Positions 8,488 through 34,935 of a stretch of 37,911 bases of DNA are shown here, in pieces (within the stretch, counting starts at the first letter, position 1; every line of letters starts with the position of its first letter). This DNA is from a virus (lineage: Duplodnaviria; Heunggongvirae; Uroviricota; Caudoviricetes): IMG/VR virus record IMGVR_UViG_2740892042_000001, positions 1 through 37,911 of that record. One strand, given 5' to 3'. A model generated the notes under the pieces. That model had not been told where the DNA came from. It saw nothing but the letters and a program-made list of their open reading frames with translations, and made no database searches. Position numbers and translations under genes: made by a program.

Positions 8488-9840
<1,353 letters not shown>

Positions 9841-30316: not shown

Positions 30317-31732
30317 ATGGCTACGTGGCAACAGGGTATTAATTCTGGTGGTTTTCTGGCTGGCATCGGTACGCAAAACGAGAATGCGCCAAAGGCAAGC
30401 GACATTAACGCAACGCTTGGTCTGATCCGCGAAAACAATGAACTGGCTCGCTCAGGTGCAAATAACGTTGGCCTGACCGCCTTACGTGGTCTGGCTGGAG
30501 TTGCTGATATTTACAATCAGGAACAGCAACAGAAAGCTATTAGTGCGTTCAATAAGGTTCACGCTGATGCATGGGCTTCTGGTGATCCATCGGGACTATT
30601 TAAGTTTGCCCAGGAAAACCCAGCGTTTGTTGCGCAGGCACAACAGGCGTTTTCCGGTCTTAATGAGCAGCAACGCAACGATATGGGCGATTTAGCCATG
30701 AAGGCTAACGTCGCTCTTTCTCAGGGACCGGAAGCCTACAGTAAATTCATTACTGATAACAAGGACAGGTTAAATCGCGTGGGGGCGAATGCTGACTGGA
30801 TGATTCAGACAGGTATTCAGAATCCAGAGCAGCTATCACACATGCTGACTACTATGTCTCTCGGTGCACTTGGGCCAGAAAAGGCGTTTGCTGTTCAGGA
30901 CAAGATGGCTGGTCGTGAGATTGACCGAGGCAGGCTGGCAGAGACAATCCGCAGCAATCAGGCTGGAGAAGCACTTCAGGCGAGAGGGCAAAACCTTTCC
31001 TATCAGTCAGCAATGACTGGACACAATATCGCAGCACAACGCTTGGCTCTGGATCAGCAAGAGTTCGGGTTTAAGATGCAGCAAGCACAGGAAAAGGCTC
31101 AGCAGTTGATTAGCGAAGCACCTAAGCTATCAGTAAACATGGAAAAAGGCATCGAGACGGCTGTAAACAATGCTACAGCATCATCAAACTCAGCCAATTC
31201 TATGAGTGCGCTTGCTCAACAGTTCAGAGCAGAAAAACCAACGACAGGTTTGTTCGGTAACGCACAGAACATGTTCGCAAAACTTACCGGAAGCGATACA
31301 ACATTGCGTGATTTGCGCATCCGCCAAAATGCCCTTGTTAACAGTCAGGTTCTTAAATTCCTACCTCCCGGCCCCGCAACGGATAAAGACGTTGAGATCG
31401 TTCGGCAGGGTGCACCAACTGACATGGATAACCCTGAGACGGTCGCAAGATGGCTTGATGCGATGGCAAACCTTGAGCGACGAAACGCGCAGTTTAATGA
31501 GTTTAAAGCCGAGTGGATGAGCGCGAATGGCAATCCAGGACAATCGCGTAATGGCGGTCAGATATTGGGGTTGGATGTTAAAAAAGGTGAATCATTGGGG
31601 AGTGCCGTTAAGCGGTATATGTCAATGAATACTGACGCAGCGCCAGCACAAGATTCGACACCTTCAGGAGAACCACGGAATCAGGTTGGATCATATACCT
31701 CAAAATCAGGCATTCAATTTACGGTGGAATGA
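30317..31732 (+). CDS. Ejection protein (P22 gp20-like)
   Basis: 471 aa; size and synteny. Confidence 0.65.
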
Positions 31733-33570
31733 TGAAAGTAACTGCAAACGGTAAGACATTTACCTTTCCTGATGGTACGAGCACCGAAGATATTGGCACC
31801 GCCATTGATGAGTATTTTGCTGGTCAGGCTGTTCAGCAACAAACAGTTAATCAGGCCAATAATGCACCAACACGTGAAGAACCATCATTAATGCAACAAG
31901 CTGGCGATTGGCTCACTGGTGGTCAAAGTGCAGGGCAAATTGCAGAACAGGCTGGTCGTGGTCTGGTAAACATACCATTTGACGTATTGCAGGGTGGCGC
32001 AAGTCTGATTAATGCAATCAGTCAGGGGCTTGGTGGGCCAAAAGTATTGGATGATGTCTATCGTCCAGTCGATCGACCGACAGACCCTTATGCGCAAGCT
32101 GGAGAAACAATTGGCGGGTATTTAGTTCCAGGAGTTGGAACGGCAGGAAGCATGGCTATTGGATCACTGGCAGAGGCCGCAAATCAGAAAGGCGATTTCG
32201 CACAAAATGCAGCTAAAAATGCCGGAGTTAACCTTGCCGCTCAGGGTGTTCTTTCCGCAGCAGCAAAGGGAATAGGGCGTGGAATAACGGCTATAAAAGG
32301 TGATATTGCGCCAGAAGTGGCGAAGAAAATTGCCACATCAGAATCGATGGGCGTGACACCAATGACATCTGATGTTATCCCGCCGAAAAATGCTTTCACT
32401 CGCGGACTTACTCAGGATGCTGAGGGGGCTTTGCTCGGGACAGGCTCAAAGCGAGCGGAGCAATATGCAACGCGTAGTAAGCTGGTAAGCAATTATTTTG
32501 ACCGTTTTGGTGAGTACAACCCTGATGATGTGGTGAAATCTCTTACCACCACGTTAAGGGGGCGGAAGGATGCCGCTGGCGCTGTTATCAATGACGTCAC
32601 CAATAAAATGGGTAATGCCGCAGTTGATACCACAAATACCATGAATGCTCTGAATACAGCGATCGCAAGACAGGAACGGCTTGGGACGTCTGCCAATCAA
32701 AGCCTGCTTACATCCTTGCGTAACCTACGTGAAGAATTAGCAAACCCTGCAACTGATTTGGATGTTACGTTTGATCTCTTGCGTCAGCACAGAACAGCAT
32801 TTAGATCCAATGTTCAGGGAGATGCTATGGTCTTCCCCAACCAGGCAAAAGCAGCTACCAATATGGTAGAGAATGCAATGTCAAAAGATCTTCGTAACGC
32901 AGTTGCAAAAAACCTCGGTGCATCAGACGCAGCAAAATACCTTAAAGCAAACTCCGATTATGCAAACGTTTATAATAAGGTGCTTAATAAAAACATTGCT
33001 AACAAGCTCAACAAGGCAAGCAGTGAAGCCAGTCCTGAACTTATAAATACCGTTGTATTAAGCAGAAAACCATCTGACGTGAAACGAATCTGGAGCGCAT
33101 TGGATGATAAAGGGAAAGATGCTATGCGTGCAGCTTACGTCAGCAAAATAGCGGAAAAATCCGGTGACTCTCCAGCCAAGTTCATCACTGAAGTTAATAA
33201 GCTGAAATCTCAGTCAGGCGGTGAAATTTACAACACTATTTTTTCTGGAAAGCACATGAAAGAGCTTGATGCTCTTCATGAAGTTCTACAGCAAACAGCA
33301 AGGTCAGACACCGCAAATGTAGTAACTCAGACGGGGCAATCGCAAGCCAACAGGATAAGGACGATTGGCGCAACTGCGACTCTTGGCGTATCAATGGGGC
33401 TTGAGGCTGGTTTCGGTGCAATGATGCGCTTGTATGAGTCCAAAGCAGCAAGGAATGCGCTCTTACGTCTGGCAAACACCAAAGCAGGAACACCAGCCTA
33501 TGAAAGAGCGTTGAGTAACGCTGCAAATGCCATCAGGCCGCTGCTTGCTACTGAGGCAACACAGCAGTAA
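31729..33570 (+). CDS. Ejection protein (P22 gp16-like)
   Basis: 613 aa; size and synteny; overlaps upstream gene. Confidence 0.65.
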
Positions 33571-33594: not shown

Positions 33595-33984
33595 TTAACA
33601 TTTTCTTTTTACTTTTCCAACAAAAGCTTTGGTTGAATCCATATTCCCATAACCAGAAATGGTTTTTGACATTAAAACTGTTCCAGTAGGATGTATTACC
33701 CATGAGTCGATAACGCGTTGAGTTTCGCCATTCGCGCCGATTCCTATGATGGAGTTTTTAGACAATGCTTTGTAAGCCATGCCGCCTGCATCTGTCCCAG
33801 AATATGTGATGCTGGCATCTTCACCGTTTGTCTTAATGATGAATGTTCCACTAAAACCATCTTCTTCCGGATGGAAATTATTTCGTTCTGAATAGCTTAT
33901 TCCGCGCATATCTCCAACGACCCAGCACTCTGCTGTAGCCCCAAAAGATATGAATAAGAACATAGCAGTAAGAAATTGCTTCAC
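33595..33984 (-). CDS. Secreted protein with signal peptide, paralog of the cI-linked gene
   Basis: MKQFLTAMFLFISFGATA-ECW..; shares ECW start of mature chain, internal NG(D/E) and C-terminal STK(A/S)FVG..C with 8488..8892. Confidence 0.6.
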   Translation of the reverse strand: MKQFLTAMFLFISFGATAECWVVGDMRGISYSERNNFHPEEDGFSGTFIIKTNGEDASITYSGTDAGGMAYKALSKNSIIGIGANGETQRVIDSWVIHPTGTVLMSKTISGYGNMDSTKAFVGKVKRKC

Positions 33985-34101
33985 ACCAACCTCCTTAGTT
34001 TTGAGCAGGATACCATGAAAAAAGTAAACATCTTTTGCCTACTTCACATTTGAATGGTTTGTCATTAGGATGTTTCCGGTTTTTTAAATATGGAAATTGA
34101 T

Positions 34102-34521
34102 ATGAAGAGGATTATTGGCGTCGTTGCTGGCGCTATGATGTTATCTGGGTGCGCAACTATTGTTGGTGATGAAACGCAACTTGTGCAAGTGAACAGCAAT
34201 CCTTCCGGTGCGAGCTTTAAGGTAAAAGACGAATCAGGCGTGATTGTTGCGCAAGGTAAGACCCCGCAAGGAGTAACTCTTGCCAAGTCAGATGGTAGTT
34301 ATTTTGGCAAAAAGAGCTACCAGATCACTATGGAGAAGGATGGGTACGAACCAGTTACCCTGCCAATAAAAGCCAATGCTAATGGTTGGTATATTGGTGG
34401 AAACCTTGTGTTTGGTGGGTTAATTGGTTGGCTTGCTGTAGATCCATTTAATGGTGGGATGTATACCTTGAAGCCTAAAGAGGCAAATGCATCCCTTATA
34501 CCGTCCACAAAGCAAGACTAA
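34102..34521 (+). CDS. Lipoprotein (lipobox LSGC)
   Basis: MKRIIGVVAGAMMLSGC.. signal with lipobox; glycine-zipper-like C-terminal segment; start could also be ATG 34090. Confidence 0.6.
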   Translation: MKRIIGVVAGAMMLSGCATIVGDETQLVQVNSNPSGASFKVKDESGVIVAQGKTPQGVTLAKSDGSYFGKKSYQITMEKDGYEPVTLPIKANANGWYIGGNLVFGGLIGWLAVDPFNGGMYTLKPKEANASLIPSTKQD

Positions 34522-34537
34522 TAAATGGAACCCACCA

Positions 34538-34789
34538 TCAGGTGGGTTTTTTGTACAAATCCTTCAGCGTATCAAACACCATCTTCTTAACAAGTTCAGA
34601 CTGCTCATCAGCGATGCGTTCCGCATCGTCTCGATAGCCTGAAATTTTGGATGGCTTTGATACAGCATCAGTAACTATCTGAACTAATTCTGAATTAAGA
34701 GAGCGGCCATTGGATTTGGCTCGCTGTTTTAGTTTTTCCTTTAATTCGTAAGGTAGCCGCAGATTAAATTGCGGGTCATCTCTTCCCAT
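34538..34789 (-). CDS. mnt: Mnt-type ribbon-helix-helix repressor
   Basis: 83 aa MGRDDPQFNLRLPYELKEKLKQRAKSNGRSLNSELVQIV..SELVKKMVFDTLKDLYKK parallels P22 Mnt. Confidence 0.85.
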   Translation of the reverse strand: MGRDDPQFNLRLPYELKEKLKQRAKSNGRSLNSELVQIVTDAVSKPSKISGYRDDAERIADEQSELVKKMVFDTLKDLYKKPT

Positions 34790-34852
34790 TCTTGATGCCT
34801 CGCTTTTGTGAGTGGATCGGCATCTTATTATCTGCTGGTTGCATCCTCAATA

Positions 34853-34867
34853 AGACCACAGTGGTCT
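34853..34867. promoter_or_regulatory. Perfect 15-bp palindrome AGACCACAGTGGTCT (candidate Mnt operator)
   Basis: Inverted repeat in the mnt-tailspike intergenic region, 64 bp upstream of mnt. Confidence 0.5.
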
Positions 34868-34935
34868 CTTTGTTCGATTAATAATGCATCACTGTGGCAA
34901 TGCTGCGGCGATTCCTTGTATCTGGAGCAAATTAA

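Follow-up and report, generated by a model that had tools for sequence, protein, structure and literature searches.

In the 37,911-nt stretch of viral DNA analysed here (the window), the expression cassette that belongs to sieA in phage P22 is occupied by another gene, a diverged paralog of hex of phage 434, here called hex-like. Our preferred reading, to which we give a probability of about 45%, is that the gene is functional and that its product, a Sec-exported periplasmic barrel of the Hex family made by the lysogen, protects against other phages. By analogy with the reported phenotype of Hex, and given the sieA address, exclusion seems the most likely role for this gene. To our knowledge, very few exclusion systems of short-tailed-phage prophages are understood mechanistically, and a soluble periplasmic protein swapped exactly into the sieA cassette is a candidate second way to block DNA delivery or shield the envelope. 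Assays for such exclusion exist: the gene can be expressed in single copy, efflux of K+ measured, and escape mutants sought in gp7, gp20 and gp16.

The sieA cassette and its occupant

The window represents a prophage or phage of the P22-like (Lederbergvirus) type with the immunity region of phage 434. It carries P22-type ejection-protein, Mnt and tailspike genes, together with a cI gene 99% identical to that of phage 434 and, downstream of cI, Ral- and N-like genes (Table 1). The immI region of the window (34790..34935) retains mnt and lacks arc and ant, with 146 bp from mnt to the tailspike gene; Mnt is thus left without an antirepressor gene to control in this prophage.

Table 1. Features of the window discussed in the text (positions in nucleotides of the window)
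Feature	Position	Strand	Remarks
cI repressor gene, phage-434-type	8889..9521	-	Heads the PRM operon, which includes hex
cI-linked paralog (phage 434 hex gene)	8488..8892	-	134 aa from M25; longer reading, 8488..8964, gives 158 aa
Gene-16-type DNA ejection protein gene	31729..33570	+	Convergent with the hex-like gene, 24-bp gap
hex-like gene, 129 aa	33595..33984	-	GTG start 33984..33982, stop 33595..33597
Leader of the hex-like gene, 47 nt	33985..34031	-	Matches the P22 sieA leader (45/47)
Lipoprotein moron gene (predicted)	34102..34521	+	Lipobox LSG before C; weak PEGA-like domain; phrog_6823; divergent from the hex-like gene
GC-rich hairpin, lipoprotein gene/mnt interval	34529..34548		T-run follows on the + strand
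mnt, Arc/Mnt-family repressor gene	34538..34789	-	Same strand as the hex-like gene

In the P22 reference, a gap of 22 bp separates the end of gene 16 from sieA on the other strand, and PsieA is annotated 31-61 nt upstream of the sieA GTG. The hex-like gene has the same orientation at nearly the same distance from gene 16, and the 47 nt before its GTG differ at only two positions from the 47 nt before the GTG of P22 sieA. Within this leader are the RBS (AAGGAGG at 33990..33996, 5 nt upstream of the GTG), a TGGTATCCT element and, of the annotated PsieA, the proximal part; in the window the -35 part of PsieA has given way to the adjacent lipoprotein module.

The arrangement recurs in the comparison set, the 80 best IMG/VR prophage loci carrying the gene at 88-100% identity, where it is co-oriented with mnt in 80/80 and convergent with gene 16 wherever the contig reaches that gene. 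The length of P22 sieA upstream sequence varies among them. At least 120 nt, with the whole of PsieA and P22-like spacing to mnt, are kept in 14 of the 80, in which the sieA ORF has been swapped for a hex-like ORF; about 50 nt are kept in 20 (the window type), 30-37 nt in 28 and 19 nt in four, and none is kept in the other 14, 13 of which have an ATG start in a tight mnt-rap1a-gene operon. All leader variants preserve the RBS, the start codon and the extended -10-like element TGnTATCCT. SieA of the P22 sequence type is absent from the window and from the 80 loci (tblastn, E up to 1). The hex-like gene thus occupies the P22 sieA expression cassette.

In P22, sieA with 85 bp of upstream sequence suffices for function in single copy, and SieA blocks injection through gp16 and gp20; the gene is carried by only 22 of 66 P22-like phages (Leavitt et al., PMC10883804). 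The two genes share slot, orientation, leader, RBS and GTG start, and in 14 of the 80 relatives PsieA as well; their products, as predicted for the hex-like one, are prophage-encoded envelope proteins adjoining ejection genes whose products SieA targets. The proteins themselves differ, having no sequence similarity (tblastn): SieA is a 164-aa polytopic inner-membrane protein, whereas the hex-like product is a predicted soluble exported barrel with a cleavable signal peptide.

Family, export signals and predicted fold

A sequence-only reading of this DNA had proposed that the ORF is a diverged paralog of the cI-linked gene, and full-length homology bears this out. The pairwise alignment it suggested as a check gives 29% identity from end to end at E 1e-12 (BLASTP; 27-29% overall), both copies match phrog_2651, a group of unknown function (E 2.9e-61 and 7.7e-59), and profiles of the two clades align with 99.6% probability at E 1.3e-24 (hhalign). 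Since all three comparisons are significant, the paralogy is real and far beyond chance. The motifs that the same reading quoted are all present (ECWVV/ECWIV, TNGED/INGDK and the C-terminal motif); as a correction, the cI-linked copy sits in the immunity/early-left region and not in the late region.

In a profile search of 1.84 billion representative proteins, the family comprises no fewer than 189 clusters (50% identity; E up to 1e-3), 96 of them at E up to 1e-10. Its members are, with few exceptions, single-domain proteins of 120-140 aa. No Pfam, NCBIfam or PADLOC family matches either copy, none of 36 aligned members matches Pfam at E up to 10, and a profile search of PDB sequences returned a single, chance-level match (E 0.76). 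What emerges is a family common among prophages of enterobacteria and as yet unannotated, having no entry in Pfam or NCBIfam. By tblastn in phage genomes, the cI-linked copy is found in 434, lambda imm434, Sf6 (gene 38), HK446, HK633, Sf101 and others. The hex-like gene itself is already known to databases, as orf129 of phage Emek, whose annotation notes a similarity to Sf6 gene 38; the literature searched mentioned neither a link to Hex, nor the replacement of sieA in its cassette, nor the family-wide export signature.

The search for further members and their contexts, also suggested by the earlier reading, resolves the clades by address. The Hex clade lies downstream of a 434-type cI in 80/80 of its best IMG/VR loci, the hex-like clade lies between gene 16 and mnt, and a third clade, in Aeromonas and Edwardsiella, consists of stand-alone genes at island edges with no adjacent repressor. 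A scan of genome contigs for the family gave three loci, a number too small for statistics on contexts beyond phages. Some members lie outside recognisable prophages, in the Aeromonas and Edwardsiella islands and as a disrupted copy in Cellvibrio. The latter, in a Cellvibrio MAG (L019, 5929..6330), looks truncated or frameshifted, an 80-aa ORF spanning the N-terminal half of the tblastn match.

The earlier reading had also ascribed a signal peptide to both copies, and in both it is predicted to be of the classical Sec type. In the hex-like protein it would comprise codons 1-18 (33931..33984), MKQFLTAMFLFISFGATA followed by ECW, with a lysine in the n-region, a hydrophobic core and a cleavage motif of ATA before E; Hex, read from M25, likewise opens with a Sec signal peptide before ECW. 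These features hold family-wide. The N-terminus is hydrophobic in 128 of 132 full-length representatives, the n-region contains K/R in 114 of 120, the residue at -1 is small in 88% of the 120 (Ala in 68%), that at -3 is small or aliphatic in 88%, and AXA-type cleavage sites stand one residue before a conserved Cys throughout the family. A lipoprotein reading of the hex-like protein was rejected: it has no lipobox, and a lipobox-like motif occurs in only 6 of 132 representatives. The signal segment is the only long hydrophobic stretch, the rest being modelled as a soluble barrel, and a periplasmic location is predicted from these export signals for both the hex-like protein and Hex.

The mature hex-like protein would have 111 residues, with Cys at mature positions 2 and 111. 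One Cys near each mature end, as the earlier reading described, is a conserved property: C20 and C129 are invariant or nearly so in the 36 aligned members, W21 is conserved, and an N-proximal C[WFY] occurs together with a C-terminal Cys in 115 of 132 full-length representatives. Structure prediction, another of the suggested checks, gives confident AF2 models from the family alignment for the hex-like protein (pLDDT 88.3, pTM 0.77) and for Hex (pLDDT 86.1, pTM 0.76), both with the same order of strands after the signal helix and both forming an 8-stranded meander barrel. A closed meander barrel has its first strand paired with its last, which would bring C20 close to C129, and a C20-C129 disulfide probably ties these strands.

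No close structural relative was found by Foldseek, whose best matches are weak (TM 0.3-0.46, E at least 5e-3), the match to PhiA being no better than those to avidins, lipocalins or outer-membrane barrels. MliC/PliC/PhiA, avidins, calycins and neisserial lipoprotein C-domains resemble the hex-like protein in size and, going by its predicted fold and export, may also share the 8-stranded meander barrel and the periplasmic location; disulfides are common among them; PF09864 (MliC/PliC) matches neither the hex-like protein nor the family (Pfam, 36 members, E up to 10).

Published Hex and the candidate exclusion role

In its 158-aa reading, the cI-linked ORF of the window has 96% identity with the phage 434 ORF for Hex, whose product is labelled 'repressor protection protein' in record OL657227. 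The true start of Hex is probably M25 of the 158-aa ORF, placing the published start 24 codons too early. The ATG of M25 (8892..8890) overlaps the cI stop codon as ATGA, gene callers pick the equivalent start for most database members, and distant homologs in Klebsiella and Enterobacter prophages have an equivalent start with a 4-bp overlap with a gene for a 210-aa S24 repressor.

Hex takes its name from 'heterologous exclusion', and the gene is on the PRM transcript of phage 434 (Shkilnyj, Colon and Koudelka 2013, PMC3564112). That paper cites Susskind and Botstein (1980) for the finding that Salmonella lysogens of lambda imm434 exclude P22, an effect lost if the prophage is hex-. The same study (PMC3564112) found that spontaneous phage release rises 30-fold in hex- cells, only if recA+, that this phenotype is partly complemented by a fragment, sHex (E43..N103), and that sHex acts in vitro as an inhibitor of the cleavage that RecA stimulates in the 434 and P22 repressors. 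Full-length Hex was toxic when over-expressed, and sHex was purified with GuHCl and used at micromolar excess (PMC3564112). A search of the literature on Hex or Sf6 gp38 found nothing beyond this paper.

The N-terminus of sHex, E43, coincides with the predicted signal-peptidase site between ANS and ECW (158-aa numbering), and the fragment covers mature residues 1-61, roughly the first four or five strands, or about half, of the modelled barrel. Because sHex is a signal-less partial barrel, the activity published for it in vitro may not be that of native, exported Hex. This bears on a conflict in the literature, in which Hex is assigned a cytoplasmic target, yet Hex and about 190 relative clusters bear export signals. 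A wider proposal, which we offer tentatively and hold to be rather doubtful, is that the Hex family is a widespread, uncurated class of soluble periplasmic superinfection-exclusion proteins, disulfide-stapled mini-barrels that intercept the trans-periplasmic DNA conduit of incoming phages, cytoplasmic repressor protection being an artefact of the half-barrel. If true, prophages would place such proteins, with differing specificities, at either of two sites expressed in the lysogen, one following cI and the other being the sieA/mnt slot.

On our preferred reading, the hex-like gene product would be a soluble periplasmic protein of about 12 kDa with an 8-stranded up-and-down beta-barrel fold. 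It would most likely be made by the lysogen, as sieA is made, since the gene sits in the sieA cassette beside gene 16. Operon linkage to repressors that lysogens express, to mnt in 13 of the 80 loci and to cI in the Hex clade, points the same way. Acting from the periplasm, it would shield the lysogen from other phages, and its target would most plausibly be a periplasm-exposed part of the incoming DNA-delivery apparatus or a host factor on which that apparatus depends. Compared with cI-linked Hex, it would have a different range of targets, given the low identity of the two proteins and mature pI values of about 8.0 for the hex-like protein and about 5.0 for Hex.

The known systems to which the pair can be compared bear on this in different ways. 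Phage 434 Hex and Sf6 gene 38 share with the hex-like gene full-length homology, a signal peptide, the Cys pair, predicted barrel topology and membership of phrog_2651, and 434 hex, too, lies downstream of a lysogen-expressed repressor gene. The two differ in sequence and pI, as above, and in address: hex adjoins cI on the PRM transcript, and the hex-like gene is instead linked to gene 16 and mnt. With lambda RexAB, 933W Stk and other products of PRM genes, cI-linked Hex has in common the rex-like position and reported heterologous exclusion; it differs in being a single small exported protein of unrelated sequence, with no abortive-infection machinery.

Hex is the only family member with a phenotype in the literature, and that phenotype is phage exclusion (PMC3564112); the main rival reading looks to another kind of enemy. 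The protein might be a periplasmic immunity or inhibitor protein that makes the lysogen more competitive under non-phage attack, for instance by a T6SS peptidoglycan-hydrolase effector, a bacteriocin or lysozyme. This would suit the 13 of 80 loci in which the hex-like gene stands directly downstream of a Rap1a-family gene in an mnt-driven operon, as it would the members in non-phage islands. Rap1a is only one of many unrelated cargos of the slot, however, and with exclusion as the sole known phenotype, no MliC/PliC, Pfam, NCBIfam or PADLOC match even at E up to 10 and nothing distinctive in the match to PhiA, we hold this reading to be unlikely. Less likely still is a calycin- or avidin-like barrel that binds a small ligand or host factor, a fitness factor of lysogenic conversion unrelated to defence that might sequester a metabolite, lipid or signal. 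Its structural matches are weak, as is usual for 8-stranded meander barrels in general, it has no ligand-binding motif in common with the matched proteins, and the two gene addresses, rex-like after cI and in the sieA slot, are classic positions of exclusion genes.

That the hex-like product is a cytoplasmic 'repressor protection protein', binding the prophage repressor, damping its RecA-stimulated autocleavage and so stabilising lysogeny, would be in keeping with the findings of Shkilnyj et al. on release from hex- lysogens, complementation by sHex and inhibition of cleavage (PMC3564112), and the window does have a 434-type cI. Against it, cleavable-looking Sec signal peptides and the terminal Cys pair lead one to expect Hex-family proteins outside the cytoplasm, and sHex, from the signal-peptidase site to N103, is about half a barrel. 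Toxicity on over-production is typical of an exported protein. The hex-like clade, moreover, never adjoins cI, the Aeromonas and Edwardsiella members have no repressor beside them, and the hex-like protein is only distantly similar to Hex. With its export signals and no linkage to cI, we consider the role very improbable for this copy. Scarcely credible, finally, is an unexpressed remnant whose coding sequence is intact and whose promoter was cut off by insertion of the lipoprotein moron. It is true that 47 nt of sieA leader are left, with the -35 replaced, that minus-strand scans of the region before the gene gave no sigma-70 promoter above threshold, and that a hairpin stands between mnt and the gene. 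Yet the same lipoprotein-type junction occurs, always with an intact ORF, in about 20 of the 80 IMG/VR loci and in 45 of 5426 complete E. coli genomes, the leader elements are kept in every variant, and the T-tract of the hairpin is poor on the minus strand. The mature part is also under purifying selection: window-type and Rap1a-type alleles differ there by 9 synonymous and 5 non-synonymous changes (dN/dS about 0.14).

Returning to protection by a lysogen-made periplasmic protein, the case that the gene is expressed in the window rests, the promoter scans being negative, on the conserved sieA leader and on comparative evidence, and we consider transcription in the window prophage likely. On the plus strand, the lipoprotein gene has a good terminator in the hairpin at 34529..34548, whose poor minus-strand T-tract makes read-through from Pmnt towards the hex-like gene possible. 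Another terminator-like hairpin, at 33857..33874 inside the hex-like ORF, was taken as chance. The description of a 'diversifying accessory family' given by the sequence-only reading stands as regards an accessory, non-structural gene; 'diversifying' does not, in view of the low dN/dS, the fixed addresses and the internal conservation of the clades.

Mosaic assembly and the neighbouring cargo slot

Judged from sequence, the hex-like and Hex copies are old paralogs from clades with separate fixed addresses, and the pair was built by mosaic recombination; it did not arise through local duplication or diversification. A single copy is the rule among relatives, and no record among 50,697 phage records has both. 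Both are carried by a prophage of E. coli CEA601S, and three IMG/VR contigs appear in both best-80 lists (L050/L102, L099/L110 and L044/L111). Recent duplication in situ was rejected on the low identity of the copies, their separate clades, each with its own address, and the single-copy state of most relatives; with fixed addresses and rare co-occurrence, modular exchange accounts for the pair in the window. Exchange has also reached into the gene itself. The recombination joint between two allele types lies inside the signal-peptide codons, MKQFLTAMFLFISFGATA against MKLIIAMAFFVFSFSVSA (window 33935..33984 against L015 5001..5050), so that the signal peptide is inherited with whatever lies upstream and the mature part with the downstream module.

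Between mnt and the hex-like gene lies a cargo slot that is hypervariable, its length running from 360 to about 3000 bp (IMG/VR loci L022..L101). Its cargos include Rap1a, the PEGA-like lipoprotein, a SocA/Panacea pair (as in phage Emek), PIN-domain, ClpP-like and P63C-domain proteins, antirepressor-like proteins of the Bro-N/ORF6N/P22_AR_C kinds and an extra S24 repressor, and the slot has the look of a hotspot where P22-like prophages accumulate defence genes or morons. The adjoining gene-16 allele ranges from 55 to 100% identity across loci; with both slot cargo and gene-16 allele varying, the hex-like gene is the constant element beside gene 16.

In the window the slot holds a self-contained moron (34043..34548, + strand), an insertion separating mnt from what is left of the sieA leader. 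It consists of a promoter-like site at 34043..34071, a gene for a predicted lipoprotein that has a hydrophobic segment at its C-terminus, and a strong terminator. The moron is shared with epsilon34, vB_EcoP-720R6 and Gally, and its product is another candidate for an envelope or exclusion factor.

The Rap1a family confers immunity to T6SS amidase effectors, an anti-bacterial and not an anti-phage function. In the mnt-rap1a-hex-like operon, found in the 13 loci noted above (for example L089-L101) and also in L015..L018 (4399..5390), the mnt stop overlaps the rap1a start, and the Rap1a protein matches PF18602 (E 9.7e-15) and has a signal peptide. Prophage rap1a would be an orphan T6SS immunity gene expressed from the prophage maintenance promoter.

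The ejection protein adjoining the hex-like gene is itself mosaic. In the E. coli CEA601S prophage (L004, 17826..20171), the gene-16 homolog encodes 781 aa with an annotated lytic transglycosylase domain, compared with 613 aa in the window.
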